From positions 744,001 through 808,000 of the forward strand of contig NW_027271249.1 of the NCBI RefSeq assembly GCF_040938485.1: a stretch of 64,000 bases of DNA, in the 5' to 3' direction. Under the pieces are notes generated by a model. It made no database searches, had not been told where the DNA came from, and worked only from the letters and a program-made list of their open reading frames with translations. Below, piece after piece: positions 1,971-35,246 of this stretch. How positions within the stretch are numbered: the first letter of the stretch is position 1; every line of letters starts with the position of its first letter. Origin of the DNA: Diadema antillarum. Taxonomy: Eukaryota. The translations under genes were made by a program, and so were the position numbers.

Positions 1971-2468
1971 TATTGGGGGGGGGGGAGGACCATCAAAAAC
2001 CAACCAAAACTTAACCCTCTAGGCTCTATCAATATTACAGACATTGACGCAAATACGCTCAAACATTACATATATCTTTGAAACATCTACGTGTATTTTC
2101 AATAGTGTAAAAAATAAAAATAAGATACCACAGATTAAGCGATGGATGGAGTATTATACATTTATACATTAATGGGTGTTACGCATGTGTTACCAAATCA
2201 CCAACGCCCATACATTTTAGAAGACAATGTCTTTTAACCTCTTTATATTAGTGGGTGTCTTGTAATTAGTGGGTGTGTCAGCGCCCGTAAATGATTAAAA
2301 AAAACATACTGGGTTAAAATATGTCACAATATGTTTCACAGAACCCCCATATACATACATACACAGACACCCACATCAACACACGCACACACGCACACAC
2401 ACACACACACACATATCACATATTCATACATTATATATTCAATTCAATATATTTATATATATATATAT

Positions 2469-3419
2469 TGTAGCCTTCTCTCCTTCTGCCGCTAGTGTAT
2501 ATGTTATTATACGCTGTGTGCCATCCGGCCCCGGCAACTAGCTGGAGAAGGGTCAGGATGGTCCGAGCTAGGCTGGGGTCCGTTTGGTTGAAATATACAA
2601 CCAGGCGTGGAGAACGGCGTTGAAATGTACCATATTGCTGGGTTACTTACTACCAGTCTATTCCCATTACTTGCTTACTACCAGAATACTACCAGTCACA
2701 ATTCATCCAACGAAGATACCAGTACCAGAGCAGCTCATCCAATCGCAGATACCAATACCAGTGCAGCTCATCCAATCGCAGATACCAATACCAGTTCACT
2801 CGCATATCATTTCATCAGTTCCGTAATTGCACTGCACTACTCACCAATACTTGTGTTATACTGCAGCAGACTTCAAATGAAACGGTCCAGGCAGTAGTAT
2901 CCACTTCAATCAACGCTTTATTGACACTACTTATATCCACACTTTGGCCCGTATCTAGGCCCACCCAGCTGGCTTATCCACACTTTGGCCCGTATCTAGG
3001 CCCACCCAGCTCTATCGGCCTGTATCCAGGCCCACCCAGCTGTTTCGATACATATTCGACCTCTTATTATTCTCCGACCGCTATATTTCCGAAACAGTTA
3101 CGCATTTTACTTACTGACCTTTTCCTAACATACTAACGCTTATTAACCTTCCTCATCATACGGAAATGATTAAATAACGAAGCAATAATTGTATGAAAGA
3201 TTATTACTGAACATAATCGCATCTCCAACAATTATTACCCCTCTAAAATTCCTAACAAAACAATCCATAAACGTCAGTTTCCTTGAAACTGATCGATTCA
3301 TGATCGATTGCTAAAATAATCGATCGATTATATATTCGACCACGAAACTTTCAATATTGGGCTAATTTTCACCCTTTTTCTTACTAATACACTAATCTAC
3401 CAATTCTCCATTGGTTACA
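2469..3419 (-). repeat. 3' LTR of the Gypsy element (951 bp)
   Basis: Runs tgtagcc...ggttaca. Differs from 16236-17184 by about 3 substitutions and one 2-bp indel by eye. Contains internal ~33-bp and ~40-bp tandem duplications and a minus-strand AATAAA at 2917-2922. Confidence 0.97.
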
Positions 3420-4447: not shown

Positions 4448-5197
4448 TCAATCGTCGGCCACGATATCTGTCTGCACCTCCAGCCACTCCCCGGCTGTAG
4501 TGATGTACCGCTCAATACGCCTTGTCCACACACGGCCTGGCCGCAACACCCGCCTGGTAGTGTTATCGATGCTGTCCGTCAGACTAGTGGCCTGCTCGCA
4601 CTGGCGCAACTGCAAAAGTCTGTCCCTGATGATGGTCCCGTCCAGATCCGCTGGCCTCACCTGTACCTCGGCATCAACAGCCATCTTAACCTCTGACCCT
4701 CTGGAGGCGGAGGCGACCGGGGACCTTGGAACCTCCCTCTTTCTACCCCCAGTCAGGTCCAATAGCTCACACTCGCTGTCTTGCTCCAGACACGCCTCGT
4801 CAATTAAAGGCGTCTCACCCCGTGATGGTGAAACGCGCCGAGCGGGTGACATGCTGCTAGATGGGACCCTCTTACGCCCCACTGCCACAGGTGACCGGCT
4901 CCTGCTTCTGTCTTTGTTGGGCGTGCTTGGGGCCTTATTCTTAACCGGTGCGGAGACGGGGGTCTTGGTGTGTACCCTGATGGTTGGAGCGCAATTAGAG
5001 GCATGCTCCCCATAATGTCTTTCCAATTCCTTACGATACGTGGTCCTAAATGAGCAACGGTCGCAGTAGTACTTTGGAGAATGTACGTCCTGCTCGTGTC
5101 TCTTCACCGAAGCCCGCGAGGCATAGACTCGTGAACACACCGGGCAGCGGTATGTTTTCTAGGGGTCCTTTTCGTCTCTTCTCTCCTCGGTGGGCAT
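4448..5197 (-). pseudogene. Extra ORF4 of the Gypsy element: tandem C2H2 zinc-finger protein with a premature stop
   Basis: ATG at 5197 (accATG) gives MPTEERRDEKDP, then TAG at 5161-5159. The frame continues KTYR-CPVC...HEQDVH and CDRC...HYGEH (two C2H2 fingers), an Arg/Ser/Pro-rich linker, and a stop at 4448. Confidence 0.75.
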
Positions 5198-5331
5198 GGT
5201 CTTAAAAATAATGATAACAAAACACACACAAAAAGAAGGCATCATTGAATTGTCCGATTTGGTACTGGCGTGTATGCTAAACTTATCCAGTCACTCCACA
5301 TACAACGACAATCACTGTTCCGGCACTGATA

Positions 5332-5955
5332 TCACTTGCAGAATCCGAAACACCAACAATCTGCGCGACCAGTATCTGGCCTAGCCCATACCGGCTCCTG
5401 AACTAGATGGGGGTAGCACTCGTGAGTCCCACACGGCGTATGCAGTTTATGTCGGTAACAGTCTACGACAGATCTGCTACCACGCAGGAAGTCGAGGCCC
5501 AATATTCCTTCATGGCGTATGTCAGCAACAATTACGTCTGCCGTATACGATAGAAGTCCCAATTGTAAAGCGACTGTTGCCTTCCCATCCATTGCCAATA
5601 GCGATCCGTCTGCCATCATCATCGGCTCATCCAGTGGGCTTAACGGTGGCTTACTGCTCGAGTCAATCGTGTCGTAAATCCTCCTGGCTATGAAGGAATG
5701 GGTTGAGCCGGTGTCCACCAACGCTTCAACTCGTGCCCCATTTACTGTGGCTTTTATAAACAGTCCGTGCCAAGTCCCATCCAGAACTGTCCTTTGCTCA
5801 CTTTCAGCAACATTACTGCCCCCAGCGGACCACTGTTCACCCCTCTGGTTCCTCGCCATGTCGGAAATGTCCTGCATGAATGCGAATACCAAAAATGAAA
5901 TAACATGAGATTTCAGTCCCAAAACAGTGAGAGTTCGACATGCCGATATGTGCAT
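5332..5955 (-). CDS. Extra ORF3 of the Gypsy element: stand-alone retropepsin-type aspartic protease
   Basis: HGLFIKATVNGARVEALVDTGSTHSF ... EGILGLDFL. Catalytic DTG at 5715-5707. Open frame; the start may be ATG 5955 or ATG 5859. Confidence 0.88.
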   Translation of the reverse strand: MHISACRTLTVLGLKSHVISFLVFAFMQDISDMARNQRGEQWSAGGSNVAESEQRTVLDGTWHGLFIKATVNGARVEALVDTGSTHSFIARRIYDTIDSSSKPPLSPLDEPMMMADGSLLAMDGKATVALQLGLLSYTADVIVADIRHEGILGLDFLRGSRSVVDCYRHKLHTPCGTHECYPHLVQEPVWARPDTGRADCWCFGFCK

Positions 5956-5957
5956 GC

Positions 5958-8900
5958 CTAGAAGTATCTGGGGGGACGTCTGTTCCGTCTCGGGTATAGG
6001 TGCGGTTCATAGCTGGAATCTCTTCCAGGCTCATCACCTTCCAACGCCAGCTCTGTTGATACAGCCTCATCAACTTGATTTGGGTGGGCATCTGAACCTC
6101 CATCAGACTCCTCGTCATCTGTAGCCGGTTCTGGTACAGCCTCCTCTACTTGTTTCGGTATGAACTCCCACACTGGCCTCTGCACCCCTGTATATGGCTT
6201 CAGGCGGTCCACATGAACCACCAGCGGCCTGGTCCTTGGTGAAAGCTGCAGCCGTAGCGTAACATCTGATAGTTTCGTGACGATCAAATATGGCCCCAAC
6301 CATTTCGTCTGCAACTTGGGACTGCAGCCCTTCTTCCGCATCTTTCTCCGGAGCCACGCATACTGCCCAACATTGTATGCTGCGACATGGGCCCTCTGAT
6401 CGTAAAACCGCTTCTGTTTTCTGCAGGCCAGCCCCAATCTAGCTCGTGCACGGTGATGTGCTCGTCTCATCCTTGTACGGAGATTCTCTGCATAATCTGT
6501 GCAGACCTCCTCCTGGTGGTCAGCATCATCTGGTTCAGCGACATCGCCTGGCATCAGCACCTCTCTTTCCATTGGGAAGCCGCTGGTTCTCTGTTGCAGT
6601 GGAGCACGCGGTGTTCTACCAGCACCCTTTCTCCTTGCACATATGTCACATTCACGCAGAGCAGACCGGAAATCTGCTGCCATCCCAATCCAGTAGTATC
6701 GTAGCCGAGCACGAGCTAGCGACTTGCCCATACCAAAATGGCCACCAGTCATAGAAGCGTGAACCGCCTGAATCACATCTCTCACAAGGACTCTTGGTAG
6801 GATAATCTGCCTCCTCACAGTGCTACCATCCGCTGCCTCCCAGCGACGGACAAGGACCCCGCTGCTAACCTCCAGCGCTTCCCAGTGATCCAAGAGCTGT
6901 CTTGCTTTGGCAGACCATGATGCTGCTTTTTCATCAGACGGTCGCTCAGCTGCCAGTTTAGCGGCACGAACCGGATTGATGTCCTCGTCTTGTTCCTGTA
7001 AACTGCCGATGTCGGGAGCCTCATCTGCTTCTTGCTCTACCAGTACCCTGGCTTGGTCTGCTGGTATCTCCTCATCACAACCGCATTGTCTACATGGTCG
7101 GCGTGACAACCCGTCTGCATTGCCATGACTTCGCCCTTGCCTATGACGGATCTCAAAATCATATTCCGAGATCAACTCCAACCACCTTGCCAGCTGACCC
7201 CTGGGGTCCTTGAATCTGACAAGCCATTGCAGCGAGCCATGATCTGTCCGTATCACCACATGACGGCCGTATAGGTACTGACGAAACTGCTTCAGAGAGA
7301 CCACCACTGCTAGGAGCTCCTTCCTCGTCACGCAGTAATTTCTCTCCGCTCTCCTCAGTGTGCGGCTTGCATATGCCACCACCCTCTCAGCACCATCTTG
7401 GACTTGGGAAAGCACGGCCCCAACACCAACGTCGCTGGTATCAGTATCGAGGATATAACTGCCATCTGGGCGTGGATAGGCCAGGATAGGAGGCGATGAT
7501 AATCTCCCCTTCAGCTCATCGAATGCCTCTTGGCATTCTTTCGTCCAGAGGAACTTGTGATTTTTCTCCATTAGCTGGTGGAGTGGTTTGGCGATGGAGG
7601 CGAAGCCTGCAACAAACCTGCGGTAGTACGATACCAGCCCCACAAAGCTCCTCACTTCCTTGGTGGTCCTCGGTGTTGGCCATTGTTGAATGGCGGATGT
7701 CTTGTCTGGATCTGTTGTCACTCCATCCTTCGACACGATATGCCCCAGGTACCTAACGCTGGTGTGAAATAGCGAGCACTTCGACGGCTTAAGCTTCAAG
7801 CCGGCCTCACGGAGTCGCTGGAAAACCACTCGAAGTCGTGACAGCTCATCTTCCACTGTCTTGCCAAAGACAATCACGTCGTCCAAGTACACAAGCAACA
7901 TTTCCCAGGTAAGGCCTGCCATCACTCTATCCATCAGACGCTCGAAGGTGGCTGGCGCATTACATAGCCCGAAGGGCATAACGCGCCAGGCATACAACCT
8001 GCCATTAGCGATGAAGGCTGATTTCTGCTTAGCCTGCTCGTCAAGCTGCACTTGCCAATACCCACTGGCAAGATCGAGGGTTGAGAACCACTTTGCCCCG
8101 CTGAGTGCATCCAGTGTGTCATCTATTCTGGGCAGCGGATAAGCGTCTTTCAGTGTTGCAACATTCAGTTGGCGGTAGTCTATGCACATCCTCTTGCTCC
8201 CATCCTTCTTTGTGACCAAGACCACGTTGGAAGACCAAGGACTGCTTACTTGCTCAATCAGCCCCTGAGATAGTAGCTGATCTATCTGTCTGTCAATCTC
8301 CGCCCTCTGCTCTGCTGGATATCGTCTTGGTGCTTGTCGCACTGGTCTCGCATCACCAGTATCAATGCTGTGCTGGACTAGATCAGTTCTGCCCAGATCT
8401 GTTGGTCCATGTGAGAAGACATCTGCAAAATCTTCCAGCAGCTCTGCTACTTGCGTGTGGTACTGCTCTGGGACCTCTTCAATGCTTCGCTCGTACAGCT
8501 CTACCACATGTGATGGCATGCCATCACCACCGTTCACGTCACGTGGAATTACCTCGACCTGTTCAGCGTTTTGGAGCTGAGTCAGACACGCCACCATAGT
8601 GCCCTGCTTCACCACTCTCTCTTCCTTTGTGGGGTTGTAAACTCTGATAGGGAGTACCTCAGCATCCGCCTCAACGACAGCCCTTGCTACCAGCAAGCCC
8701 TTACTGAGGGTCTCAGCCTGGTTGGTAGGAGCTTCCAGCAGGCCAACTCCTGCGATTGGTTGTGGCCTTCCACCTGCCACCATGCCTTTCAATATTGCCT
8801 CGTGTCCTGGGGGTACTGAACTGGTCTCGCTTGCTATGATTCTGCGGCAGAAAGGCTGACCCCGATGATCTTTGCATTGGATCGTCTCCCATGGCAGCTG

Positions 8901-9234
8901 CAGCTCCAGTTTGCGGCAATCCAGCACCGACTGTGTTTGCATCAAGAAGTCCAACCCGATGATACCCTCATTGTGAAGATTGGCCACCGTCACCTCAAAC
9001 ACGAACAGCAAATGTCCCATCTGGATTTCAGCCAGTGTTTTACCACTGGTCTCGAGTGGAGAACCGTCTGCTTGGCGCACTGTACGAGTTGCTCGCTGCA
9101 ATACCGGCTTCCTTGCATCTTCAATCTTGCTGAAGATCGCATTGGACACATACGTCTGCGATGAACCGGTATCAATTAGGAATGTGATGGGCTGACCGTT
9201 GATCTTAGACTCAACATGAAGACCATGATATCTG
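5958..9234 (-). CDS. pol: pol portion of gag-pol: protease, RT, RNase H, integrase lacking its catalytic core
   Basis: FLIDTGSS and GIIGLDFL (PR); LPRIDD and YLDDVIVFG (RT); DTDTSDVGVGAVLSQ, ELLAVV and TDH (RH); HHCC zinc finger HASMTGGH...CDIC. GFPMER is fused directly to EVLMP, so no DDE core is present; a GPY-like module (WLGPY) follows. Confidence 0.95.
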
Positions 9235-9603
9235 CTATTGATTTGATTTATTTATTCACCGTAAATTCAGCATAAAAAAGAGTACAGTAAAAGTATGACA
9301 AGCAATATAAAACATATGATCAACAGTAGAATAATACATAGAATGCATCAAATATGGAAAAGAGGAAGAAAACAAGAGAGGGAAATAAGCAACGAATATG
9401 TACGGTAGGATAGCCCATTCAGCTCAGTCTACGAAGACATGGCTGTTCTTCCATGGGGTCCTAGTATAAAATTGATATTGACATCAGGAAAAAAAAACAA
9501 AACAAACATTCAAACTGTAAAAAATATGTATATCACTGACAAGAGAAAAAAGGACATTGTATGTCGACTAAGCTACAAAGAAAGTAAACATACTATAAAA
9601 GGA

Positions 9604-12600
9604 TTACAAAAAATCTGGAACAAATGATATCAATTTACTAGAAAATGAAGCAGGACTACAAACAACTTTTAAGCTTGGAGGGAGATTGTTGTATTGCACA
9701 GCACCCCTATAATAAAAAGTTCTTTTACAGTATTCTGTCCTGGGTTTTGGCAATGCTAAGTTACCTGTTGACCTAAGTAAATAATTAAAATGACAATATT
9801 GGAATTGATCTTTTAAATACGGAGGTGCAAAATCATGTAATGTCTTAAAAACCATGGTGTTTAAATGGCAACAACGACGAGCTGCTAAAGACTTCCAGCC
9901 TAGACGTGCATGCAGCTCTCTGACCGACATATGTCTATACGGACTTATTCCTAATATTATTCGACATGCTCTGTTTTGAAGTTTCTGTAATAACCTTGTG
10001 TGTTTAGAACTGGTTGAACCATATATGACATCTCCATAATCAAAGATAGGAAGAATAATTGCGTTATAAACAACTTTTAGATTGGACAGATTGATTGTAT
10101 GTCGTAATCGGGATAACAACCGTACCAATTTACTTATTCGAATGCACATCTTATCAATATGGAGGTTCCATTTCAGACATGGATCTAAGATCATGCCAAG
10201 ATATTTCGTAGAATGTACCTGACAGATAATATTTTCATTTACCAATAAATGTAGTTTATTGCACTTTTTTAACTTCATCTGAGAGCCGAATAACATACAA
10301 ACCGTTTTATCTTGATTGAGGCTCAACTTCGATTCACACAACCAGCTAAAAATGTTCTGTAGTTCAGAATTCAAAACAGACTCAATCATAATGATGTCTG
10401 AATGTGAAAAATAAATAACAGTATCATCAGCGTATAAATGTATTGAACAGGAATGGACTTGTTTGACTATGCTGTCAATATATATGATGAACAAGAGTGG
10501 GCCCAAAATTGACCCTTGCGGAACACCGTAATCGATATTGGCTTCCACTGATGTTGATGAACTAAAATGTGTATATATTCTGCGATCAGTTAAATAACTA
10601 GAGAACCATGACAAACAACTCTCAGCAACACCTATAGCAGATAACCTTTTTAACAGAATGCAAGGATCAACAGTATCGAACGCTTTGCGTAAGTCTATAA
10701 ACACTGCACCGGTGTACTGACCGTGGTCAATGGCGGTCAGCCAATCATCAGTTACTTTTAGTAAAGTAGAAATGGTTGAATGATTTTTCCTAAAGCCCGA
10801 CTGGGCTTGGGATAAAATATTGTTATCTTTCAAGTAATTAGTCAGTTGGACTTGAACAAGCTTTTCCAATATTTTAGATACCGAAGACAGAATAGAAATG
10901 GGTCTATAATTATTTGGGGATGCTCTGTCTCCAGTTTTATATATTGGAATTATTTTTGATCTCTTCCAATTGGAAGGAAATGTACATTCTGATAAAGATC
11001 TATTGAATATGTGGGTCAATGAAGAAACAATAACCGGAAGAGCCATTTTTAGCATTATCATAGAAATATTGTCTACTCCCGTAGATTTCTTATTACTCAT
11101 TCCCAGAATTGTTTTCATTACATCATCTTCTGTTACTGAATTAAATTCAAAACATGATTGGACAGAATTAATATCAACAGTATCATTTCTGAAATCCGGA
11201 ATAGTAGCCGCTAGTTCGGATCCTATATTTGCGAAAAAATCATTGAATTGATTAGCCAAAACTGAACTGTTATTGCTATCAGTGCTGTTGTTAACAAGCT
11301 TTTTTGACGGTAGGAGCGGTTTAAGCACCGACCAAACATTTTCACCGGAAGAGCAATTAAAAACATTTGATAATTGTTTAGAGAAGTATTCTTTTTTTGC
11401 CAATCTGCATTGCTTTGTTACTAAGTTTCTGACTTTACGATACATATTCATAATATATTCATCATTGTATTTTGAGGCCTTTCGTTTCAGATCATCTCTC
11501 TTTTTCATTAACATTTTAATATTTGCGTTTATCCAGGGGGCAGGCTGTTTTCGTACGCGTTTCTTTTTAACCGGGGCAAATTTTTCAATCGAATCCATAA
11601 AATATGTTTCCCAAAGTTCAATTGCTTCATCAATAGTTGTGGCTGCTGATATTTCATGCCAAGGGTGATTAGACAAATGAATACGAAAGGCTTCCAAATC
11701 TACATTTTTTAAATTTCGGTAACTTATAATCCTAGGACTTTGCACAGATTTAAAATTCAAAATCAAATAACATAAATTGTGATCACTCAGTCCAACATTA
11801 ATTACTCCATAAGCTTTTACTATATCAATCGCATTGGTCATCATATGATCTATTAAACTCCTCGTATTATGCGTGACTCGAGTAAACTGCGTGGTATTTA
11901 TTTGCTGCAATGAAAATAATGTATTTATTTCTTCAAAACGCTTCAAAACATTCGACTTATATTTCTTGCGAATATCACAATTTATATCTCCCATCACAAT
12001 AATATTTAATCTGAAAGTATCAACAAAGGTTAAAACATTTTCATATATATTCATAATTTCAATTTTGCTGTCAGGAGGGCGGTACCAGGACATAAACAAA
12101 AAAGGTGCACATGATTTCGGTCGGACTCTGATCAAAATAAGCTCCAGCGAATCAGTTACATCAGAATGTATCACCTCATAAGGAATTGAATTGCGAATAT
12201 AAATAGCAACACCACCGCCATTACGATTCCGATCCTTACGGATTATATCGTAATGTTGAATACCTATTTCATTATCACTTATAGAATCATCCAAAAGTGT
12301 TTCATTCAAAGCTAAAATATGAATATTATTATCATATAAAAACAGTTTTATTTCTTCAACATTACGATATAAGCTACGAATATTAAGGTGAGTACATTTA
12401 AAATCATTATTTTTGAAGTGATCGTATTGTCGTGATACATCAGAACCATCATGCTCATTATCGTAACGAGAGCTCACAGGAGGTGTGATGAATTCTCTAG
12501 TATCAATATTTGACTCATCAGGTATACAATTAGCAAAAGGTAAGCACTGAAAAACGCATTTTGTACATCTCCAGTTCAAAAATTCATATTGTACATCATC

Positions 12601-12726
12601 ATAATGTTCATTTTTTACGCCTTCACATTTTGTGTGCGACCAGGCTGAGCATTGGGTGCATTGTAATCCTCTTTGGTTGTTTTTGACTGCCTTAGTACAT
12701 ATAACACAAGGGTATTGCACAGTCAT
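9604..12726 (-). CDS. LINE ORF2: PHD finger, APE endonuclease, reverse transcriptase
   Basis: CVIC...CTQC..SHTKC...CTKC (PHD); LNET, GDINCD and SDH (APE); DLRKAFDTV, GVPQGSILGPLLF and YADD (RT). Uninterrupted. Likely start is MTVQYPC at 12726 (the ORF track extends to 12795). Confidence 0.95.
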   Translation of the reverse strand: MTVQYPCVICTKAVKNNQRGLQCTQCSAWSHTKCEGVKNEHYDDVQYEFLNWRCTKCVFQCLPFANCIPDESNIDTREFITPPVSSRYDNEHDGSDVSRQYDHFKNNDFKCTHLNIRSLYRNVEEIKLFLYDNNIHILALNETLLDDSISDNEIGIQHYDIIRKDRNRNGGGVAIYIRNSIPYEVIHSDVTDSLELILIRVRPKSCAPFLFMSWYRPPDSKIEIMNIYENVLTFVDTFRLNIIVMGDINCDIRKKYKSNVLKRFEEINTLFSLQQINTTQFTRVTHNTRSLIDHMMTNAIDIVKAYGVINVGLSDHNLCYLILNFKSVQSPRIISYRNLKNVDLEAFRIHLSNHPWHEISAATTIDEAIELWETYFMDSIEKFAPVKKKRVRKQPAPWINANIKMLMKKRDDLKRKASKYNDEYIMNMYRKVRNLVTKQCRLAKKEYFSKQLSNVFNCSSGENVWSVLKPLLPSKKLVNNSTDSNNSSVLANQFNDFFANIGSELAATIPDFRNDTVDINSVQSCFEFNSVTEDDVMKTILGMSNKKSTGVDNISMIMLKMALPVIVSSLTHIFNRSLSECTFPSNWKRSKIIPIYKTGDRASPNNYRPISILSSVSKILEKLVQVQLTNYLKDNNILSQAQSGFRKNHSTISTLLKVTDDWLTAIDHGQYTGAVFIDLRKAFDTVDPCILLKRLSAIGVAESCLSWFSSYLTDRRIYTHFSSSTSVEANIDYGVPQGSILGPLLFIIYIDSIVKQVHSCSIHLYADDTVIYFSHSDIIMIESVLNSELQNIFSWLCESKLSLNQDKTVCMLFGSQMKLKKCNKLHLLVNENIICQVHSTKYLGMILDPCLKWNLHIDKMCIRISKLVRLLSRLRHTINLSNLKVVYNAIILPIFDYGDVIYGSTSSKHTRLLQKLQNRACRIILGISPYRHMSVRELHARLGWKSLAARRCCHLNTMVFKTLHDFAPPYLKDQFQYCHFNYLLRSTGNLALPKPRTEYCKRTFYYRGAVQYNNLPPSLKVVCSPASFSSKLISFVPDFL

Positions 12727-13001
12727 GTAGCAAAGATATGTATTAAAAGGACCGGGTAAATGAAGAAAAAAATAAGTAAAAGAAAAAAAAAACACAGAAA
12801 GATATATAACAAAAGATTGAAGTTACGCAAGACTTGAGAGAGAGAGAGAGAAAAAAAAACACTACAGTCAATTTACTAAATGAATAGAACAAAGTTGAGA
12901 ATGCATCATAATCACTTTTACACTTATTTGGAAGCAAACTCTTATACAATAGAGCAGACTGATGTGGACCGGCATATCTATACAGTGCCAAATTCAGAGA
13001 G

Positions 13002-13778
13002 TCATATCAAGTCTAAGTCACTTTCGGAATTTATCGCACGCTTGATAGTTTTCCCGCCAGTAGCAGGGAGCAGGGCAACCACTCTCCCATCGGAAGTCCA
13101 AGCTGACAGCACCTTGCGACACGCTTTGGTTTTGCGAAGCAGCGAAGCATTTTCCTTTGTAAGATCTTCATCGATGCCCATCTTGGAACCCTTGAGTGCA
13201 CGCCGTTTGGAAATGACAAGCTTCCTTACGCGATATGAAACGAACTTCACTATAATTGGACGAGGCTTCGTTTTGTTGTTCCGCGAAGCGCGACTGCTCC
13301 TCCTCAGAGATCCGTCCGGGCTTTCACTATCGCTAGGGGATCCGATGCGGTGAGATCTTTCGATGTCATTCTTTGTGAGCGGTATTTTGAGGATTTCGTT
13401 CACAATGTGGCAAACTTGATCATCTGTGCTCTCGCCCTTTGACTCCTCCACGCCATAGAATCTCAGACAATTACGTCTTGAGTATTGCTCTTGTGCGCAG
13501 ACACCTCGCTGAATGCTCTGAACAAGGTTGCGCTCCTTGTCAAGAGCTTTGTGTAGATTCGTGATTTCGGTTGACTGGACCTCAATGCGCTTTTCCAAGT
13601 CCATTATCTTAGCCTCATTTGCCTCAACACGTTGGGCAATGCTTGATAATTCAGCTTGCACGGTTTCACGGACAGCATTCCTGATTGCTTGGAGGAATGC
13701 ATCTCCTTCAACAAAAGCTTTCATTGTCTCATCAATGATGGCTCTGACCTTTTCCTGAGTCATCGACGCATTAGGCAT
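13002..13778 (-). CDS. LINE ORF1: coiled coil plus L1-type RRM nucleic-acid chaperone
   Basis: Coiled-coil N half, then EQYSRRNCLRFYGVEE, IERSHRIG, PRPIIVKF and IDEDLT motifs typical of CR1/L2 ORF1. Likely start is MPNASM at 13778. Confidence 0.88.
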   Translation of the reverse strand: MPNASMTQEKVRAIIDETMKAFVEGDAFLQAIRNAVRETVQAELSSIAQRVEANEAKIMDLEKRIEVQSTEITNLHKALDKERNLVQSIQRGVCAQEQYSRRNCLRFYGVEESKGESTDDQVCHIVNEILKIPLTKNDIERSHRIGSPSDSESPDGSLRRSSRASRNNKTKPRPIIVKFVSYRVRKLVISKRRALKGSKMGIDEDLTKENASLLRKTKACRKVLSAWTSDGRVVALLPATGGKTIKRAINSESDLDLI

Positions 13779-14418
13779 GATGGCGGATGAGTTATTTGCA
13801 ATGACGATATAAATCGTATGACGGGTAGAGCTATACAAACGCCCAAGTGAGAGAAGTCAAATGACAGTTGAAAGTCTTAAATACAAATAAGGTTGTATCG
13901 TTGAAAATGACTCAAAGATGACAGATAAAACTCCCTTAGCTCCAAGAGTCAAATCAGTTCACACGACCATTTTCAACATGGCGTCGGCCATTGGTGTGTG
14001 TAGTACCCATTTCAACAAGTGGTTACATGCGGAGTTCAAAATGATGAATACGGTGCATTCTCAAATGGAGACATTAGGCAGTGTTAATGTATCATAGATA
14101 CTGCAAGAGTGGCCATATGAAAACAATCACAGACTATGCAAAATGTATGTCGGAAAGGTATATGCACGAGCTATATACGCGGTGAGTAATGGACATTCAC
14201 ATACCACGCTTGCATAATATAGGTTCCATCACGATTGTACCGCCTTTGGCCGCCACAGTACGCAATCACGTCCAAGTTCCACGATCACTCTTTCTTGAGA
14301 ATATGAGTTTATCCAACAAGTTTCAGACACATGGCCGCTGTGATTTTGTAAGAAATACAAAATCCAAGGAAAGTTCTCTGAGTCTATGGACGAAAATTCC
14401 AGTTTCTTCAATAAAAAT

Positions 14419-16191
14419 TCAGTGAAAGTAGAGTGATGATTGGAGAGACTCGTTTCTGTGTCTATTGCCAACTGGCCGTGCTTGCTCTGCTTGTTCAGCC
14501 TGGGGTGCTCGCTGTGGTTGTTCTGGTGTCCTTTGTTGCACGCCACCAACATCGCTACGAAGTGGAGCTGGTCCCCACTCTGGCTGACTGCGTGCTGGTA
14601 TCTGCTCGATATTTGATGCTTGGGGGCAGTGCCTCCAACCATGGCCAACTTGATTGCAGTGGTAGCACCTCCTTCTGTCTGCATCGATGTTTGCTGGCAT
14701 ACTTCTAAGTGGTTGCTTCACTAGACGTGGGCAATCTCGTTTCCAATGGCCAGCTTGGCCGCAATTGAAACAATTGTTGCTCTGGTCCCCAGGCAGTGAT
14801 GATGCTGGTACCCTTGCAAATTGTGATGTCGCGTTGGTTCTCGATCGTGTTGGTGGAGAAGATTCCACTCTGGAAATCAGCTCTTCCATTGCTTTCGTCA
14901 TTCGCCTCATAGCGCCGTCTTTCTCCTTGGTTGCAGGGCTCTTCTGCTCTACATCATCAGTCGCCAGTGCTCTGCTATACCGCTGCGACCGGCCATCGCT
15001 TCTCTCCGTCTCCATCCTCAGGAAAGCCTCTGTACTCAATGCTGCTTCAATCGCCTCGTCAAGTGTGCGGGGCTGGGCGCGGAAAAGACCTTCTCGTATC
15101 TCTGCTCTTACGACCGCGTCCATGAAGTGGCCTCTTGCTAAGCGATCTTGCCCCGCCTCGTCAAATTCTTGGTAGGCTAATGCAGTCAGCTCCCGAATAC
15201 CTTGTCCCAACTCCTGCAGAGTTTCCTTTGGTTTCCTCCTCCTGGTCCGCAGCTCAGCCAAGAAGACTTCGGATTTGCCTGCTGGGCCGAACCGTTGCTT
15301 AAGCCTATTTACCAGCTCGCTGTACGTTAACCTCCTTCCTGTCTGTTGAACAAGGACCTTTACAGCTGGGCCTCGCATGCTGGCAGCCAAATACTGCAGT
15401 GCTTCATCTTCGGACCATCCGTTCACCCCTGCGCAGGCCTCAAAATGACTCAAATAGTCAAGAATCGGCCCCCTGCCGTCGAATCTATCGGGAGTCATCC
15501 GCAGCTTATCTCCACCTCTATATCTGCGCTGGTAACTGCCTTCGTCCCACAGTTCTGGTCTTCGCCACGGTGTACCCATTGCTGATGGCGCTGCTGATGA
15601 ATTACCTCCAGCACCTACCAGAACTTCATTTACTGGTGCTGGCTGGTTGCCCGTTGCTGGTGTCTCCCAACTGGTCTGCTGGATCCTGCTGGGGCCGCCT
15701 GCCATCCTACCTTCACATGTAGGACCACTCTGCCATTGCTGACTTCCAGTCATCATGCCGACACCAAACCGTTGCGCTGTAACTGGTTGATTGCGATACC
15801 TGCTGTATCCATCGTTGACTGATCTGCTTTCAGGTGTTGCAAAGCTACTGGGGAACGAATGAGGAATCTCAACGCTTCCACCAGATCGCCTTGCAAAACT
15901 AGCAGGAGGAGCTTTACTTCCGGATGACTCTGCTGCAGCATTCGGTGCTGTGGTGAAGCCATCCTGGTCTAGTGGTGTGCTGCTGCTAATTCCTGCCCTT
16001 CCTGAACTCATCGTTCCTGAGCTGGGGTAGCTGGTGGTAGCGGGTCCCTGCGACGGAGCTGGAGTTCTTCCGAGTGCTGCACGAAGATCTGTCATCATCG
16101 CTTCGACGTCTGCCAGCTCCTGTTCTAGCTGCCACCAGATTTCCGCTGGAGTTTGCTGACGCACGCCAGCAGTCCTTGCTGAGTGATGCAT
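14419..16191 (-). CDS. gag: Gypsy gag with two CCHC zinc knuckles; the last ~14 codons and the stop derive from the LINE
   Basis: PDRFDG...FEACAGVNGW and capsid-like region. Knuckles CFNCGQAGHWKRDC and CYHCNQVGHGWRHC. The native frame continues across the TSD into 9234. Confidence 0.93.
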   Translation of the reverse strand: MHHSARTAGVRQQTPAEIWWQLEQELADVEAMMTDLRAALGRTPAPSQGPATTSYPSSGTMSSGRAGISSSTPLDQDGFTTAPNAAAESSGSKAPPASFARRSGGSVEIPHSFPSSFATPESRSVNDGYSRYRNQPVTAQRFGVGMMTGSQQWQSGPTCEGRMAGGPSRIQQTSWETPATGNQPAPVNEVLVGAGGNSSAAPSAMGTPWRRPELWDEGSYQRRYRGGDKLRMTPDRFDGRGPILDYLSHFEACAGVNGWSEDEALQYLAASMRGPAVKVLVQQTGRRLTYSELVNRLKQRFGPAGKSEVFLAELRTRRRKPKETLQELGQGIRELTALAYQEFDEAGQDRLARGHFMDAVVRAEIREGLFRAQPRTLDEAIEAALSTEAFLRMETERSDGRSQRYSRALATDDVEQKSPATKEKDGAMRRMTKAMEELISRVESSPPTRSRTNATSQFARVPASSLPGDQSNNCFNCGQAGHWKRDCPRLVKQPLRSMPANIDADRRRCYHCNQVGHGWRHCPQASNIEQIPARSQPEWGPAPLRSDVGGVQQRTPEQPQRAPQAEQAEQARPVGNRHRNESLQSSLYFH

Positions 16192-16214
16192 GTTGCGCTG
16201 CCCTGTCTACTGCC

Positions 16215-16233
16215 AATCCCACTCCTGACACCA
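16215..16233 (-). promoter_or_regulatory. Primer binding site complementary to the 3' end of tRNA-Leu(CAG)
   Basis: The plus strand aatcccactcctgacacca equals the 3' 19 nt (including CCA) of metazoan tRNA-Leu(CAG) as recalled. It lies 2 nt from the 5' LTR. Confidence 0.9.
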
Positions 16234-16235
16234 CG

Positions 16236-17181
16236 TGTAGCCTTCTCTCCTTCTGCCGCTAGTGTATATGTTATTATACGCTGTGTGCCATCCGGCCCCG
16301 GCAACTAGCTGGAGAAGGGTCAGGATGGTCCGAGCTAGGCTGGGGTCCGTTTGGTTGAAATATACAACCAGGCGTGGAGAACGGCGTTGAAATGTACCAT
16401 ATTGCTGGGTTACTTACTACCAGTCTATTCCCATTACTTGCTTACTACCAGAATACTACCAGTCACAATTCATCCAACGAAGATACCAGTACCAGAGCAG
16501 CTCATCCAATCGCAGATACCAATACCAGTGCAGCTCATCCAATCGCAGATACCAATACCAGTTCACTCGCATATCATTTCATCAGTTCCGTAATTGCACT
16601 GCACTACTCACCAATACTTGTGTTATACTGCAGCAGACTTCAAATGAAACGGTCCAGGCAGTAGTATCCACTTCAATCAACGCTTTATTAACACTACTTA
16701 TCCACACTTTGGCCCGTATCTAGGCCCACCCAGCTGGCTTATCCACACTTTGGCCCGTATCTAGGCCCACCCAGCTCTATCGGCCTGTATCCAGGCCCAC
16801 CCAGCTGTTTCGATACATATTCGACCTCTTATTATTCTCCGACCGCTATATTTCCGAAACAGTTACGCATTTTACTTACTGACCTTTTCCTAACATACTA
16901 ACGCTTATTAACCTTCCTCATCATACGGAAATGATTAAATAACGAAGCAATAATTGTATGAAAGATTATTACTGAACATAATCGCATCTCCAACAATTAT
17001 TACCTCTCTAAAATTCCTAACAAAACAATCCATAAACGTCAGTTTCCTTGAAACTGATCGATTCATGATCGATTGCTAAAATAATCGATCGATTATATAT
17101 TCGACCACGAAACTTTCAATATTGGGCTAATTTTCACCCTTTTTCTTACTAATACACTAATCTACCAATCCTCCATTGGTT

Positions 17182-17184
<3 letters not shown>
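16236..17184 (-). repeat. 5' LTR of the Gypsy element (949 bp)
   Basis: Direct repeat of 2469-3419 with TG...CA ends, followed by (AT)n. Confidence 0.97.
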
Positions 17185-17213
<29 letters not shown>

Positions 17214-19344: not shown

Positions 19345-20819
19345 ATGGTCAGGTTTGCTATAAACGAGCGTTGTAACCGAAGTTCGCAATCTCTTGGTTA
19401 TTCCAAAAGACAAGCAGGTCATAGTGCGTTTGTCCATGGTTCTTGAACCTAAGAAATTTATTCTAAGTTCATCTTCTCTTCACGCCTATATATCGATCAC
19501 AATCGCTACTGATGTGTAAAAGAGACACAAACCACGCCCACCTTGTAGGAGGTGATACCATTTTTATTTTCAGAGATCAAATTTTGGTATAATAACGCTG
19601 CGCAGGGAGTTCTTTGCGCAGCTTGTTTTAATGCGCCTGCGTATTTCAGGTGTTATCTTTTCATGGTGGTAGTCGTAATGCGACGATAATGAATAGTGAG
19701 TTCGCAGAAGCCTGCTTTGTGTAGCAGTAAATACGACAAAGACATCTTTTCTGGGTGGGCTACAAATAGGCAGCTTCGGACAGGTATAATCCAAACTGAG
19801 ACTGTGAGACATTTTCAACATATCGTTTTCGCCTAACTGGTAACTGGTACAGGGACCCTACTCCTACTTATATCGTAAGTTGCATCTTGTTCATTTAGGC
19901 CTACAGCTTTTCTTCCTCTATGTGTTCAGACGTCATTTAAATTACAAGTATATTTTAACGATCCCGGTATCTCGTCAATGCATATAGCACGCAATCATGT
20001 TGACAGCATGTAATATTCCATCCCCTAATCTTCCAGCTTTCTCGCTTTAATCTCTCTGCGCAGATCGCAACGTTGTACCTGTCTTCAGTTCTTATTTCCC
20101 ATTGCACTTTGCTATTTTTTTGTCATGTTTGGTGTGTGAATGTCATAATTATCTGAAGTGGTAGACGTACACTGTTTCGCGAAATTAACAAGCTATTTAT
20201 TTGTCCTTCTTATTTTCATACGCAATGCATACATATGTCTTTCACAAATCATGAATTATGAATAGGGTTACTATAATTGCAGCTCTTTATTATTCCAGTA
20301 GTGAACTATCAATCCGAACTTTTGTCTTGAGTAGTTCCTATATCGCAAAACGATATCCTATTGTAACAGCGAAATTCTGAATGGTAAGTATGAATTCTAC
20401 AAATTTCAAGAAATATACATCTTCTTCAGAAAAAAAAAATCTTATTGATTATTTTGATCTCTCTCTTACGGCATTTTCTTGCAACTTTGATAATGTACAT
20501 TGATAGACAGGGAGAAATATTATTCTTAATCGTTGTTGTCTTTCTATCTGCGTGGAAATTCAAGGGCAAACACGTCACTGTGAAATGTAATTCGCGTCAA
20601 ATGGCTTATCTTTTTTCTTTCAGGAAATACGACCTTGTCTTCGCCAGCATGTGGTGTTTGGTTGCAGCCATTACTGTCATAGTCCAATGAGACCTATTAC
20701 CGCCTATCGATGCATTTTCTGGTGAAATCACTTCCTCGAATGGTCCAGCCGTAGACGTTGAAGGTGCAGGAACTTCAGGAATTCTCAGAAGCAATCTCTC
20801 ATGGAGTTCCTCTGCAGAA

Positions 20820-21845
20820 ATGGAAGAGACAAATCAAACAGGTGATACACCAAAGCTCGACCCATTGCAATGGACATGGGTCTTTGGGTGGACGTGGGTG
20901 AATGCCCTTGAGATGAGCTGTGCCTGTGTTGGGGTACTGGGAAACCTGCTTGTTATACTCGCACTCCGGATGCAGGCACGAACTATAAAACACTCGACCG
21001 ACATCTTACTCGGAGCACTGGCAGTTTCTGATCTACTGACATCCATTTCCATCATGCCCTTACCTCTTGCTGTAAGAGTGCCGCGAACGCCACTTGGTTC
21101 GCTGTACTGTAAGTTTGCATACCCGCGTTACTTTGTGTGGGTCCCAGTCCACGTGTCTATTTACACTTTAGTAGGAATAGCCATTGAACGCACGATTGCA
21201 ATAGTGAGTCCACTACATTTCAGATCTTACGTCACCACTCGCAAAATTTACACCTACATATCGACGGTGTGTGTCCTGTCGTTTATATCTTGCCTCTATC
21301 CAGTTAAAACGGATGTGGTCAACAACACCTGCAAGGTCCCGTATGGACCAGAGACCAGTGGAACGATCATGTTCTACCTGCTCATGATCAGGTTTGGCAC
21401 ACCTGTGACCATCATGATCGTAACGCAGGCGGCTACGGCGTGGTCACTCCATCGTCAATCACACCGCGTGCGTAAGGGGCTTTCTCAAGCCACCGGGGTA
21501 CCGTCCACTCACATACGGGCTCGCAACCGTATCACCAGGTTGACCTTCCTCATTGTCTTGACGTACATCCTGACATTTGCTCCCCATCACGTGACTGCCG
21601 GGGTATGTGTTCTACAGGGAAAGATATACTCGTACCTGCACAGCCCTCTTCACAGCGCTCTGTCTGTGCTGATTTGTGTCAACTCTTGCGCCAACCCTTT
21701 CATATACGCGTCCCAGTACCCGAGGTTCCGGACCGCCATAAGAGATGCTTTCAAATGCAAACGAGTTGACAACCAGAATCATCCGTTTTTCACTTCAGAG
21801 TCAAATACTTTTCAGCATGAAAAAATACCAAAAAGCAAAGATTAG
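20820..21845 (+). CDS. Intronless rhodopsin-class (class A) GPCR, paralog 1; original N-terminus (ATG 20649) interrupted by TGA at 20688
   Basis: Seven hydrophobic segments, GNLLV, LAVSDLL, YCKF, IERT (DRY position) and NSCANPFIY (NPxxY). The upstream in-frame sequence matches the paralog 2 N-terminus. Confidence 0.9.
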   Translation: MEETNQTGDTPKLDPLQWTWVFGWTWVNALEMSCACVGVLGNLLVILALRMQARTIKHSTDILLGALAVSDLLTSISIMPLPLAVRVPRTPLGSLYCKFAYPRYFVWVPVHVSIYTLVGIAIERTIAIVSPLHFRSYVTTRKIYTYISTVCVLSFISCLYPVKTDVVNNTCKVPYGPETSGTIMFYLLMIRFGTPVTIMIVTQAATAWSLHRQSHRVRKGLSQATGVPSTHIRARNRITRLTFLIVLTYILTFAPHHVTAGVCVLQGKIYSYLHSPLHSALSVLICVNSCANPFIYASQYPRFRTAIRDAFKCKRVDNQNHPFFTSESNTFQHEKIPKSKD

Positions 21846-29157: not shown

Positions 29158-30984
29158 GCCGTCACTGTGGGTCTCAAACTATTTTCTCACTTACGCTGAT
29201 ACTATGCTCAGTAAGTACATTCAAGTTTAAAAATGCATAGTTATGTCAATGCAAAAGATATACTGGCACGTCGCGAATTATTATTAATGATATGTCAAAA
29301 TGACATTTTAAAAAGAAAGAAATATCTTGCTCTTGATCCTGTAAAACAACAAAAAAAGTGTCATCGCATTGGGGCGTGATTATGGAATGAGCGTTATTAG
29401 CCACTCTTGTACTTTTGTATGATTTACATATGGAAATGAAAAGAAATGAAAAGAAATGAAAATGAAATGAAATGAAAATGAATTGAAATGAAAATGAAAC
29501 TAAGCTACTAATAGAATTCAAGCCTCATAAATTATTCGTTTAAGAGTCTAGAACGTTGTCCTCTGCACCGCAGTAAATAATGCTGACTTAATTTCTGTAA
29601 CTTCCAGGGTCGGAAGGATCCAAGAAAGGATCTTGATGGGCGGAGGAATGCAGTCATACCTTTAAAAAACACATCGGTTTCTGATTCTTGAGATTTTTTG
29701 ATATTGAATAGTACCTAACCTAGTGCTCGGATACTTATCAACAACTATTAACAAATTTTCAGACAAGTACTATAGGAGGTCAAAAATGGTTACATGGTGA
29801 GGTTTGCTAAAAACGAGCGTTGTAACCGAAGTTCGCAATCGCTTGGGTAGTCAGAAAGACACGCAGGTCATAGTGCGTGCGTCCTTGGTTCTTGAACCTA
29901 AGAAATTTATTTGAAGTTCATATTCTCTTCACGCCTATATATCGATCATAATCGCTACTGTAAAAGAGACACAAACCGCGCCCACCTTGTAGGAGGGGAT
30001 ACCATTTTTATTTTCAGAGATAACAAATTTTGGTATAACGCTGCGCAGGGAGTTCTTTGCGCAGCTTGTTTTAATGCGCCTGCGTATTTCAGGTGCTATC
30101 TTTCCATGGTGGTAGTCGTAATGCGACGATAATGAATAGTGAGTTCGCAGAAGCCTGCTTTGTGTAGCAGTAAATACGACAAAGACATCTTTTCTGGGTG
30201 GGCTACAAATAGGCAGCTTCGGACAGGTATAATCCAAACTGAGACTGTGAGACATTTTCAACATATCGTTTTCGCCTAACTGGTAACTGGTACAGGGACC
30301 CTACTCCTACTTATATCGTAAGTTGCATTTTGTTCATTTAGGCCTACAGCTTTTCTCCCTCTGTATGTTCAGAGGTCATTTAAAGTACAAGTATATTTTG
30401 ATGATCTAATCCCGGTATCTCGTCATTGTATATAGCACGCAATCATGTTGACAGCATATAACATTCCATCTCCTAATCTTCCAACTTTCTCGCTTAAATC
30501 TCTCTGCGCAGATCGCAACGTTGTACCTGCCTTCCATTCTTATTTCCCATTGCACTTTGCTATTTTCTGTCATGTTTGGTGTGTGAATGTTTATAACGAT
30601 CCGTTTATCTAAAGTTGTAGGCGTACATTGTTTCGCGAAATTAACAGGGCGTTATTCATTTGTCCTTCTTATTTACGTAAAGCATACATATATCTTTCAC
30701 AATACATGACTTATGAGTAGGGTTACTAGTTACAGAAGTTCATTACACTGCCACTTGTGATCTATCAATCCGGATTTTTGTCTTAAGTAGTTCCTATATC
30801 GCAAAAAGATATCCTAGTGTAACAGCGAAATTCGAAATAATAAGTATGAATTCTACAAATTTCAAGAAATACGGCTTCTTCAGAAATTTAAAAAAAAAGT
30901 TATTCATGATCTCGATCTCTCTCTCACGGAATTTTTTTCTTTCAGGAAAATATATTAAGATAGACGACCTAGTCTTCGGCAATC

Positions 30985-32184
30985 ATGTGGTCTTTGGTTG
31001 TAGCCATTTGTGTCATTGTCCAAGGAGACCTATTACCGCCTATTGATGCATTTTCTGGTGAAACCACTACCTCGAATGGTCCAGCCGTAGACGTTGAAGG
31101 TGCAGGAACTTCAGGAATTGTCAGAAGCAATCTGTCATGGAGCTCCTCTGCAGAAACTGAAGAGGCAAATCAATCTGGTGATACACCAAAGCTCGACCCA
31201 TTGCAGTGGACATGGGTCTTTGGGTGGACGTGGGTGAATGCCCTTGAGATGAGCTGTGCCTGTGTTGGGGTACTGGGAAACCTGCTTGTTATACTCGCAC
31301 TCAGGATGCAGGTAGGAACCATAAAACACTCGACCGACATCTTAATCGGAGCACTGGCAGTTTCTGATCTACTGACATCCATTTCCATCATGCCCTTACC
31401 TCTTGCTGTAAGAGTGCCGCGGACGCCGCTTGGTTCGCTCTACTGTAAGTTTGCATACCCGCGTTACTTTGTGTGGGTCCCAGTCCACGTGTCCATTTAC
31501 ACTCTTGTGGGAATAGCCATCGAACGCACGATTGCTGTAGTGAGTCCACTACATTTCAGGTCCTATGTCACTACACGCAAAATCTACACTTACTTATGGA
31601 CGGTGTGTGTCCTGTCTTTTATATCCTGCCTCTATCCTGTTGAAATGAAAGTGGTCGACAACACCTGCAAGCTTCTGCATGGACCCGAGTCCAGTAAAAC
31701 GGTCGTGTTCTACCTGCTTATGATCAGGTTTGGCACACCTGTTACCATCATGATCGTAACGCAAGCAGCTACGGCGTGGTCACTCCATCGTCAATCACAC
31801 CGCGTTCGCAAGGGACTTTCTCAGGCTACTGGGGTATCGTCCACTCACATACGGGCTCGAAATCGTATCACCAGGTTGACCTTCCTCATTGTCTTGACGT
31901 ACATCCTGACCTTTGCTCCCCATCACGTGACTGCAGGGATATATGTCCTGCAAGGAAAGCTGTACTCGTACCTGCACAGTCCTCTTCACAGCGCTCTGTC
32001 TGTGTTGATTTGTGTCAACTCTTGCGCCAATCCTTTCATATATGCATCCCAGTACCCAAGGTTCCGGACCGCCATAAGAGATGCTTTAAAATGCCAACGA
32101 GCTGACAATCAGAACCATCCGTTTTTCACTACGGAATCAAATACTTTTCAGCAGGAAAAAATACCACAAAGCAAAGAATGGTAA
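30985..32184 (+). CDS. Intronless class A GPCR, paralog 2, full length (399 aa) with N-terminal signal peptide-like segment
   Basis: MWSLVVAICVIVQG hydrophobic leader, N-glycosylation sequons (NLS, NQS), 7TM, IERT and NPFIY. A candidate 5' UTR splice acceptor ttttttctttcag at ~30935-30947 is conserved in paralog 1. Confidence 0.93.
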   Translation: MWSLVVAICVIVQGDLLPPIDAFSGETTTSNGPAVDVEGAGTSGIVRSNLSWSSSAETEEANQSGDTPKLDPLQWTWVFGWTWVNALEMSCACVGVLGNLLVILALRMQVGTIKHSTDILIGALAVSDLLTSISIMPLPLAVRVPRTPLGSLYCKFAYPRYFVWVPVHVSIYTLVGIAIERTIAVVSPLHFRSYVTTRKIYTYLWTVCVLSFISCLYPVEMKVVDNTCKLLHGPESSKTVVFYLLMIRFGTPVTIMIVTQAATAWSLHRQSHRVRKGLSQATGVSSTHIRARNRITRLTFLIVLTYILTFAPHHVTAGIYVLQGKLYSYLHSPLHSALSVLICVNSCANPFIYASQYPRFRTAIRDALKCQRADNQNHPFFTTESNTFQQEKIPQSKEW

Positions 32185-34019: not shown

Positions 34020-35246
34020 GTGTTCATGATATTCAGTGTAAGAATTAATACAAAAAGATTATTTAAATGATACCATTTTATAGGCAAATTGTTCAATAAT
34101 AATATACACTAAATTATACTGCAACTTTAAACAAGTGGGACTGTTTCATCACGTTAAAACACGCAAAAAAGATGTATCAAATTGCACCATTTGCAACATC
34201 AAAATGCAAAAAGTTCTCACCGTGGGAGGGGGTACACCCCCCCCCCCTCCCACACCCTCCCCTCCCCCCTCGCTCTCTCCGCTCTCTCGGGTTCAGTCGC
34301 GTTCATGATATTCAGTGAAAAGAAGTAATACAAGAAGCGTATTTAAATGATAGCATTTTATAGGCAAATTGTTCAATGATAATCTACATCAAAATATACT
34401 GCAACCTTAAACAAGTGGGACTGTTTCACGTCGATAAAACGCGCAAAAACATGCATCAAATTGCACCATTTGCAACATCGAAATGCAAAAAGTTCTCACC
34501 GTGGGAGGGGGGGGACACCCCCTCCCCTCCCCCCTCGCTCGCTCTGCTCGCTCGGGTTCAGTCGCGTTCATGATATTCAGTGAAAAGAATTGATACAAGA
34601 AGTGTATTCAAATTATACCATTATATAGGCAAATTGTTCAATTATAGTCTACATCAAAATATACTGCAACCTTAAACAAGTGGGACTGTTTCACGTCGAT
34701 AAAACGCCTAAAAACATGCATCTAATTGCACCATTTGCAACATCACAATGCAAAAAGTTCTTACCGTGGGAGGGGGACACCCCCTCCCACACCCTCCCCT
34801 CCCCCCTCGCTCGCTCCGCTCGCTCGGGTTCAGTCGCGTTCATGATATTCAGTGAAAAGAAGTAATACAAGAAGTGTATTTAAATCATACCATATTATAG
34901 GCAAATTATTCAATGATAATCTACATCAAAATATACTGCAACTTTAAACAAGTGGGACTGTTTCAACTCGTTAAAACGCGCAAAAACATGCATCAAATTG
35001 CACCATTTGCAACATCAAAATGCAAAAAGTTCTCACCGTGGGAGGGGCACACCCCCCTCCCACACCCTCCCCTCCCCCTTCACTCGCTCCGCTCTCTCGG
35101 GTTCAGTCGCGTTCATGATATTCAGTGAAAAGAGTTAATACAAGAAGTGTATTTAACTTATAGCATTTTAAAGGCAAATTGTTCAATAATAATCTACATC
35201 AAAATAAACTGCTACCTTAAACAAGTGGGACTGTTTCACGTCGATA
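34020..35246 (+). repeat. Tandem array of ~270-bp units (about 4.5 copies; resumes at 37955-38060)
   Basis: gttcagtcgcgttcatgatattcagtg recurs at 34291, 34556, 34828 and 35101. Confidence 0.9.

Follow-up and report, generated by a model that had tools for sequence, protein, structure and literature searches.

Contacts between a primer tRNA and its template that reach beyond the PBS are known from the retroviral PAS and from the retrotransposons Ty1, Ty3 and Gypsy. The parts of the articles on HIV-1 and on the U5-T-arm contact of RSV and HIV-2 that were accessible (PMC11181671, PMC3185550) describe the PAS as a site before the PBS that is complementary to the T-arm 5' strand and can hide in an intramolecular stem; for HIV-1 the role of contacts outside the PBS is disputed, the 8-nt PAS overlapping another structure (accessible part of PMC3185550). 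The Ty3 PBS is bipartite, with separate sites for the acceptor, the T arm and the D arm of one primer, its second part lying in U3 about 4800 nt away (PMC5371799, in the portion available). The text obtained for Ty1 (PMC3592414, partial) describes a 10-nt PBS with extra contacts downstream of it, the boxes 0, 1 and 2.1, of which Box 2.1 formed in vitro and is unconfirmed in particles. In Drosophila Gypsy a second site for another part of tRNA-Lys,2, 11 nt long and near the RNA 3' end, matches the anticodon and T stems; it bound the tRNA and was not needed for cDNA synthesis (accessible sections of PMC1635307). Finally, the Helenus TRIMs, short non-coding animal elements moved by gypsy elements, carry inside the LTR a tRNA-like sequence unmatched to their PBS (PMC10886601, as far as available).

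We analyzed a 64,000-nt stretch of the Diadema antillarum genome (contig NW_027271249.1, positions 744,001 to 808,000), hereafter the window, whose LTR retrotransposon carries, besides its PBS, an island of about 30 nt complementary to two further parts of tRNA-Leu. The island is composed of two adjoining modules, M1 and M2. Like the PAS, M1 lies upstream of the PBS and is complementary to the T-arm 5' strand, and a predicted stem between M2 and the PBS depends on the length of the fragment folded. The PAS, however, is 8 nt long and retroviral, whereas M1 is 14 nt long, reaches the variable arm and is fused to an acceptor/D-stem site of 15-16 nt, the whole belonging to a retrotransposon and being known here from sequence complementarity. 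Ty3, also a Ty3/gypsy element, likewise addresses acceptor, T arm and D arm through sites of their own, but its division of the PBS between 5' leader and U3 is not found here: the PBS is full (18-19 nt of pairing, 19 nt in the window), and the additional sites are located in predicted U5, 85 nt upstream of the PBS and beyond the poly(A) signal. Ty1 likewise pairs with its primer outside the PBS, yet the window element combines a full PBS with sites upstream of it. The Gypsy second site also addresses another part of the primer including part of the T stem, its position near the RNA 3' end differing from that of the island in predicted U5. Unlike Helenus and TRIMp3, the window element is coding and 14.7 kb long, and its island matches the primer tRNA and is without a usable B box, which is cut at G57, there being no tRNA call. 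In the literature searched, with most subscription papers and the Repbase reports outside reach, we came upon no account of a U5 site in which sequences for both freed tRNA strands are fused; to judge by the sequences, the island is most likely an extended primer contact, of a longer and differently built form than the contacts described.

The window element is a Ty3/gypsy retrotransposon on the minus strand that carries gag and pol and has the following features:

16236..17184, minus strand: 5' LTR, 949 nt, TG...CA on the minus strand, with an (AT)n run beside it
16685..16690, minus strand: AATAAA, the LTR's sole copy, upstream of the island by about 360 nt
16215..16233, minus strand: PBS, 19 nt complementary to the tRNA-Leu 3' end including CCA, 2 nt from the LTR end
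14462..16206, minus strand: gag part with zinc knuckle (Pfam), interrupted by the nested insertion
9240..14462, minus strand: nested LINE-like insertion, with PHD, endonuclease and RT at 9604-12822
5958..9251, minus strand: pol, with protease, RT, RNase H and the integrase zinc-binding and C-terminal domains (Pfam)
5332-6006, minus strand: second aspartyl-protease ORF, between pol and the 3' LTR
4448-5158, minus strand: C2H2 zinc-finger ORF, between pol and the 3' LTR
directly upstream of the 3' LTR, minus strand: purine tract
2469..3419, minus strand: 3' LTR, 951 nt, with an (AT)n run beside it

The purine tract, together with the PBS and the TG...CA ends, is the basis for the assignment as an LTR retrotransposon, and the domain order of pol (protease, RT, RNase H, integrase) is that of Ty3/gypsy elements. 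Since the two LTRs are near-identical (3 mismatches and one 2-nt indel), the insertion is young. The nested LINE-like insertion is not present in the other copy of the same family, family A, when the two copies are compared. The stretch with the extra ORFs (4448-6006) gives a 98% alignment with another copy, and these ORFs therefore belong to family A. A Pfam search of the window pol returned no rve match for the integrase catalytic core, which is missing in-frame from the window copy and from 4/4 other family-A copies checked (among L109, L110, L111 and L300) and is present in the sister families B and C; the latter may supply the core to the young, core-less family A. Runs of (AT)n flank families A, B, C and E (window 2450-2468 and 17185-17201; 3' LTR ends in L293, L294 and L297), which suggests that these families target AT microsatellites. 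Elsewhere in the window are found two pairs of duplicated segments, one with rhodopsin-family receptor ORFs (19592-21845 and 30035-32184) and one at 43566-46990 and 56611-60050, as well as a further RT ORF on the plus strand at 35129-37231, beside a tandem repeat of 265-280 nt.

The plus strand reads GTCAGGATGGTCCGAGC at 16319-16335 and at 2552-2568. An earlier note on this DNA, made from the sequence alone, had located this 17-nt motif 83 nt inside both LTRs, and a search of the window with at most one mismatch gave exactly these two matches, 0.00 being expected from 100 shuffles. Every retroelement ORF between the LTRs is encoded on the minus strand; the element RNA therefore carries the complement of this motif and could pair with the tRNA. 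The island is made up as follows:

16319..16335, minus strand: module M2, the complement of tRNA-Leu nt 1-16 with one bulged base
16336..16349, minus strand: module M1, the complement of tRNA-Leu nt 54-67, adjoining M2
2552..2582, minus strand: the two-module island of the 3' LTR, with the same M1 and M2 as the 5' LTR

A pattern search of the genome (1.75 Gb) recovered seven host tRNA-Leu genes that begin with the 16 nt which the earlier note had given and that end in the complement of the PBS; the 5' end of the host tRNA thus does not differ from the one given there, and the claimed complementarity of 16 nt at its 5' end, with one bulge, and of 19 nt at its 3' end was confirmed. The naming of tRNA-Leu(CAG) as the primer held in part: four of the seven genes have the anticodon CAG, but the others (CAA, TAA and AAG) have identical ends, so that an isoacceptor of any of the four anticodons may be the primer. 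Four tandem tRNA-Leu genes with the same acceptor and T arm carry the anticodons CAA, TAA, AAG and CAG (L003-L006, contig C613 of genome G000). In an Rfam search of the genome for tRNAs, the loci that were scanned proved to be of Lys, Thr and Ala type only.

M2 covers the 5' strand of the acceptor stem, nt 8-9, the 5' strand of the D stem and the start of the D loop, and its predicted duplex with tRNA nt 1-16 has an energy of -30.9 kcal/mol, to be compared with -36.5 for the PBS and the last 19 nt of the tRNA. M1, which is absent from the earlier note, corresponds to one strand each of the variable arm (3') and the T stem (5') and to the T loop as far as G57 (standard numbering), 12/14 of its nucleotides pairing with the tRNA in the window family. 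It was recognised by reading 30 loci with the PBS of the window element. The support for this putative module is positional: in each of five LTRs the 17-mer just 5' of M2 is predicted to bind the tRNA segment nt 54-67 better than 648 other LTR 17-mers, and a shuffle test of M1 alone over a 250-nt window gave significance in 0/45 families. Two other LTR families contain, 77 and 146 nt upstream of the PBS, a 15-nt stretch perfectly complementary to the tRNA 5' end, with M1 directly 5' of M2 as in the window element. M1 and M2 follow each other as they would in a tRNA complement from which nt 17-53 had been omitted. The base opposite A58, the next after M1, is not T in 28/28 scored copies, and the PBS begins at 59. 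The distance between island and PBS ranges from 77 to 190 nt, and the island is downstream of the nearest poly(A) hexamer in the LTRs of families A, B, C and D; thus it is likely part of U5 and would be present only at the 5' end of the RNA.

The relatives of the element were collected by an RT search of the genome, which gave 127 matches (family A at 97-100%, B at 81-82%, C at 76-77%, and clusters at 61-70%). In the RT tree (24 rows, midpoint root), from which metagenome rows were excluded on account of long-branch warnings together with 12 near-duplicate or PBS-less genome rows, and to which 5 rows were added, A, B and C group together (97/94), with E and F as their sister group (98/98); family D is a coding-decayed relative of B, and A, B, C and D count as one shared origin and are not independent. 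When the 728-950 nt upstream of the PBS were compared by blastn, the sole match was the island for A-B (46 nt), A-D (51 nt) and B-C (32 nt), with no match for A-C and one 20-nt match for C-D, situated elsewhere than the island. The motif is therefore conserved beyond its PBS-complementary part in sister families whose LTRs otherwise do not align, as the interpretation in the earlier note required. A pattern spanning the M1-M2 junction had 525 matches in the genome, against 0 for the reversed control, and all of the 30 junction loci fetched (30/30) are A-D LTRs. Within the island the letters that match only the tRNA are the least variable: the GCCTA block is identical in all five family variants and the CCCAC block shared with the PBS varies. 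Among family-level changes in 29 island copies, 8/8 transitions keep a G-U pair and none breaks pairing (p 0.04), next to 3 breaking transversions and small indels; two single island copies carry a breaking change, and counting the single-copy breaking transition brings p to 0.14, so that the bias is modest. In family C (19 copies) 2/28 island columns vary as compared with 90/312 others (p 0.013). Judged from these comparisons of sequences, the island is under selection. Among the matches listed, DNA contigs crossing the island have 0-3 differences over 235-301 nt and one U3 contig has 24 differences in 301 nt; all are possibly from the same species, and this comparison is not included in the evidence for conservation.

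Some individual copies are further rearranged. Family B LTRs (L118/L293, L099 and L112) have come to include one or two decayed copies of the PBS, which L118 shows in both of its LTRs, and the innermost of these copies lies at the PBS distance of families A and C; L103 and L106 have tandem PBS copies; and in family E (L101, L108 and L134) the 5'-end complement is split in two by 14-23 nt.

We then considered families beyond this clade. Clustering was carried out on 252 distinct genome PBS sites with at least 260 nt upstream, and 45 families were tested by shuffles; the CAG type has the PBS of the window element, and the AAG/TAG type, used by sister clusters, corresponds to the other tRNA-Leu. 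A cognate nt 1-16 duplex reached by at most 1 of 100 shuffles is found in 7/12 CAG-type families (z -7.7 to -8.8 in A, B and C), the remaining 5/12 showing no significant 5'-end site, and the control segment nt 17-45 was significant in 0/45 families. For the AAG/TAG type (n=29, members chosen by PBS or RT) a site is significant for the cognate tRNA in 3 families and for the non-cognate tRNA in 0 (p 0.02). Counterparts with another primer, for which the earlier note had asked, thus exist, but 26/29 of these unbiased families primed by the other tRNA-Leu are without a site. Most relatives being without it, the site is dispensable in relatives, and the full island was found in 0/12 RT-selected loci of sister clusters. 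The non-cognate V/T segment scored at 0 of 100 shuffles in 2/45 families, so single matches can be due to chance. The acceptor stem of the AAG/TAG-type tRNA-Leu contains a U3-G70 wobble, and this U-G pair makes pairing with the tRNA distinguishable from a hairpin with the PBS: upstream of 288 PBS sites, at a distance of 15-220 nt, we counted the hexamer of the tRNA type 27 times (6 families) and that of the hairpin type once. The hexamer is present in 8/29 unbiased families and in 4/29 after removal of LTR-end matches, since 4/8 of these matches, including the long one of L318, coincide in part with an LTR-end motif that is common. A pairing of about 19 nt with tRNA nt 2-23 exists at the LTR end of one gypsy family (RT 58-59%), nt 2-7 overlapping the same motif. 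In one clade (100/100) a CAG-type family stands beside one of the AAG type, and each has the site cognate to its primer. Taken at the level of sequence, the covariation of such sites with primer identity is real but patchy. In the family of L290, L292 and L267, which uses the other tRNA-Leu, a match of 10-12 nt to its variable arm occurs about 35 nt upstream of the PBS, followed in L290 and L292 by a 7-nt match to nt 2-8, in the same order as M1-M2.

In other genomes the PBS is mostly not accompanied by such a site. The best 5'-end score of 118 metagenome loci with the same PBS is 10, versus 14-15 here, and 1/67 metagenome families has a z below -3 (the tRNA of the window's own genome was used, and some of the families may not be LTR elements); as 66/67 are without a site, the PBS does not force a 5'-end match. 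Only one of the 118 loci has an RT near the clade (59%), and in it the island is absent, so that the metagenomes yielded no cross-species set of this clade. The PBS search of viral contigs gave 0 matches. At 9/118 of the metagenome loci (L154, L173, L203, L225, L230, L232, L238, L241 and L249) the PBS match extends to 25-32 nt, through the T loop, and several of these loci come after an LTR-like CA end.

We consider it probable, at about 0.6, that the island is an extended contact between template and primer by which the two tRNA strands set free on PBS annealing are captured, perhaps swapping with a weak U5-PBS stem. Annealing of the 3' 18 nt of the tRNA to the PBS would free exactly the 5' strands of the acceptor and T stems, and M2 and M1 would capture them, leaving 46/86 tRNA nucleotides paired in family A and 48 in B; with the freed strands held in this way the tRNA would presumably be kept from folding back and displacing itself. 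In this state the anticodon arm is expected to form a loop, with A58 left without a partner between M1 and the PBS helix. In the free RNA, M2 may instead pair weakly with the PBS (10 bp), so that tRNA binding would exchange one stem for stronger ones. Such a clamp would act in primer loading and at the start of reverse transcription, RT displacing it after about 85 nt.

The fold predictions bear on this model to differing degrees. The M2-PBS stem has 10 bp with one bulge and is predicted at -13.1 kcal/mol, versus -30.9 for M2 with the tRNA. In a 181-nt fragment of family A it forms with a probability of 0.74-1.0 per pair, in a 261-nt fragment it is gone, and it is also predicted for B and C, M1 pairing with the PBS in D; the U5-PBS region as a whole folds no better than shuffles (z -0.93). 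The earlier note had envisaged a stem of 7 nt and a further 9 nt matching only the tRNA: a stem is possible, but it is longer than supposed and the tRNA-only part comes to 6/16. The cofolding of U5-PBS with the tRNA that the note suggested yielded the helix at the PBS without that of M2, the state with all three helices being a pseudoknot that is not representable there. A bipartite clamp as then proposed agrees with complementarity and conservation, although the candidate contact is wider than foreseen and would also take the segment of the variable arm and the 5' strand of the T stem. The switch from a PBS-occluded to a primer-loaded state, with M2 released from the PBS stem on tRNA binding, is possible on the folding models, the occluded state being predicted in some fragments but in those only.

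As to origin, RT may have copied the primer past A58, selection then keeping the copy. In the human tRNA-Lys3, methylation of A58 stops RT (available part of PMC8599865), which is assumed here for the host as well. Two single copies, L284 and L269, have a PBS that runs on for 46-50 nt along tRNA-Leu(AAG), and L269 has two facing PBS copies around tRNA sequence; RT run-through in this genome is shown by a PBS of 49 nt in a single copy; these run-through copies and the collinearity of M1-M2 with the tRNA make an origin by RT run-through likely. A wider joint reading, which we regard as tentative and rather doubtful as a whole, is that Leu-primed gypsy elements repeatedly capture pieces of their primer. 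It would comprise capture by RT run-through with retention in U5 as a two-strand clamp, a clamp in the A-D clade pairing more than half of the tRNA and leaving only A58 and the anticodon arm free, and a second code for primer identity which changes with the primer and locks the PBS until the right tRNA arrives.

Several other functions of the island have to be weighed against an extended priming contact. It is rather unlikely that it binds tRNA-Leu for bridging two genomic RNAs, or for recruitment, packaging or strand transfer, and not for initiation. Complementarity and conservation would suit such a role equally well, placing M1 and M2 on one RNA and the PBS on another would avoid the pseudoknot, and the Gypsy second site, unneeded for cDNA synthesis, bridges RNA ends (accessible sections of PMC1635307); yet the 3' end of the RNA would not include an island that follows the poly(A) signal and is 77-190 nt away from the PBS, and the edges of the island coincide with the strands freed by PBS annealing. 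That the island is instead an intramolecular partner of the PBS, in a U5-PBS hairpin switch, its tRNA likeness arising from the self-complementarity of tRNA stems, appears unlikely. Indeed, 15 island nucleotides match the tRNA only, the PBS-shared part of M1 is the most variable, and at the U3-G70 wobble the letter of the tRNA type wins by 27 to 1; the 10-bp stem predicted at 0.74-1.0 per pair in the 181-nt fragment and again in B and C, and the pairing of M1 with the PBS in D, speak for the hairpin, but the stem is weak (-13.1 vs -30.9 kcal/mol), is lost in the 261-nt family-A fragment and belongs to a region with a z of -0.93.

Read on the antisense strand, the island might be a shrunken tRNA gene that works as a promoter for Pol III, as a site for TFIIIC or as the origin of a small antisense RNA. 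Its letters on that strand agree with the A-box consensus, including GG, and are followed by 3-4 T. Helenus LTRs carry a tRNA-like promoter sequence, albeit one not complementary to their own PBS (available part of PMC10886601). The B box, however, is incomplete, A58 and the remainder being absent, differs in A and D and lies 2-4 nt from the A box, while acceptor nt 1-7, outside the promoter boxes, are conserved and track primer identity; ARAGORN called no tRNA over the island, Rfam had no match over the LTR, and we hold this reading to be improbable. The first 16 nt of a tRNA are also the span of short 5' tRNA fragments, and M2 is their near-perfect complement, so that the island could be a site at which such fragments or tRNA halves regulate the element RNA. 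This is highly improbable, as it leaves the fusion of M1 to M2 unexplained and an element would gain little by keeping a silencing target. A neutral relic of a captured tRNA copy, finally, is largely refuted: tRNA copies made by RT run-through do occur in the genome and the island runs collinear with a tRNA complement from which nt 17-53 are taken out, but it persists in LTRs whose other parts can no longer be aligned and varies less than its surroundings within family C.

The putative 30-nt contact forms one conserved island in otherwise diverged LTRs, and nature provides it in full, split, partial and absent versions as well as with a switched tRNA-Leu. These natural variants offer a clean system in which extended priming can be tested with short RNAs and natural controls. 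The contact also points to primer run-through as a possible route by which such sites arise, and to a possible reason why some lineages keep one primer.
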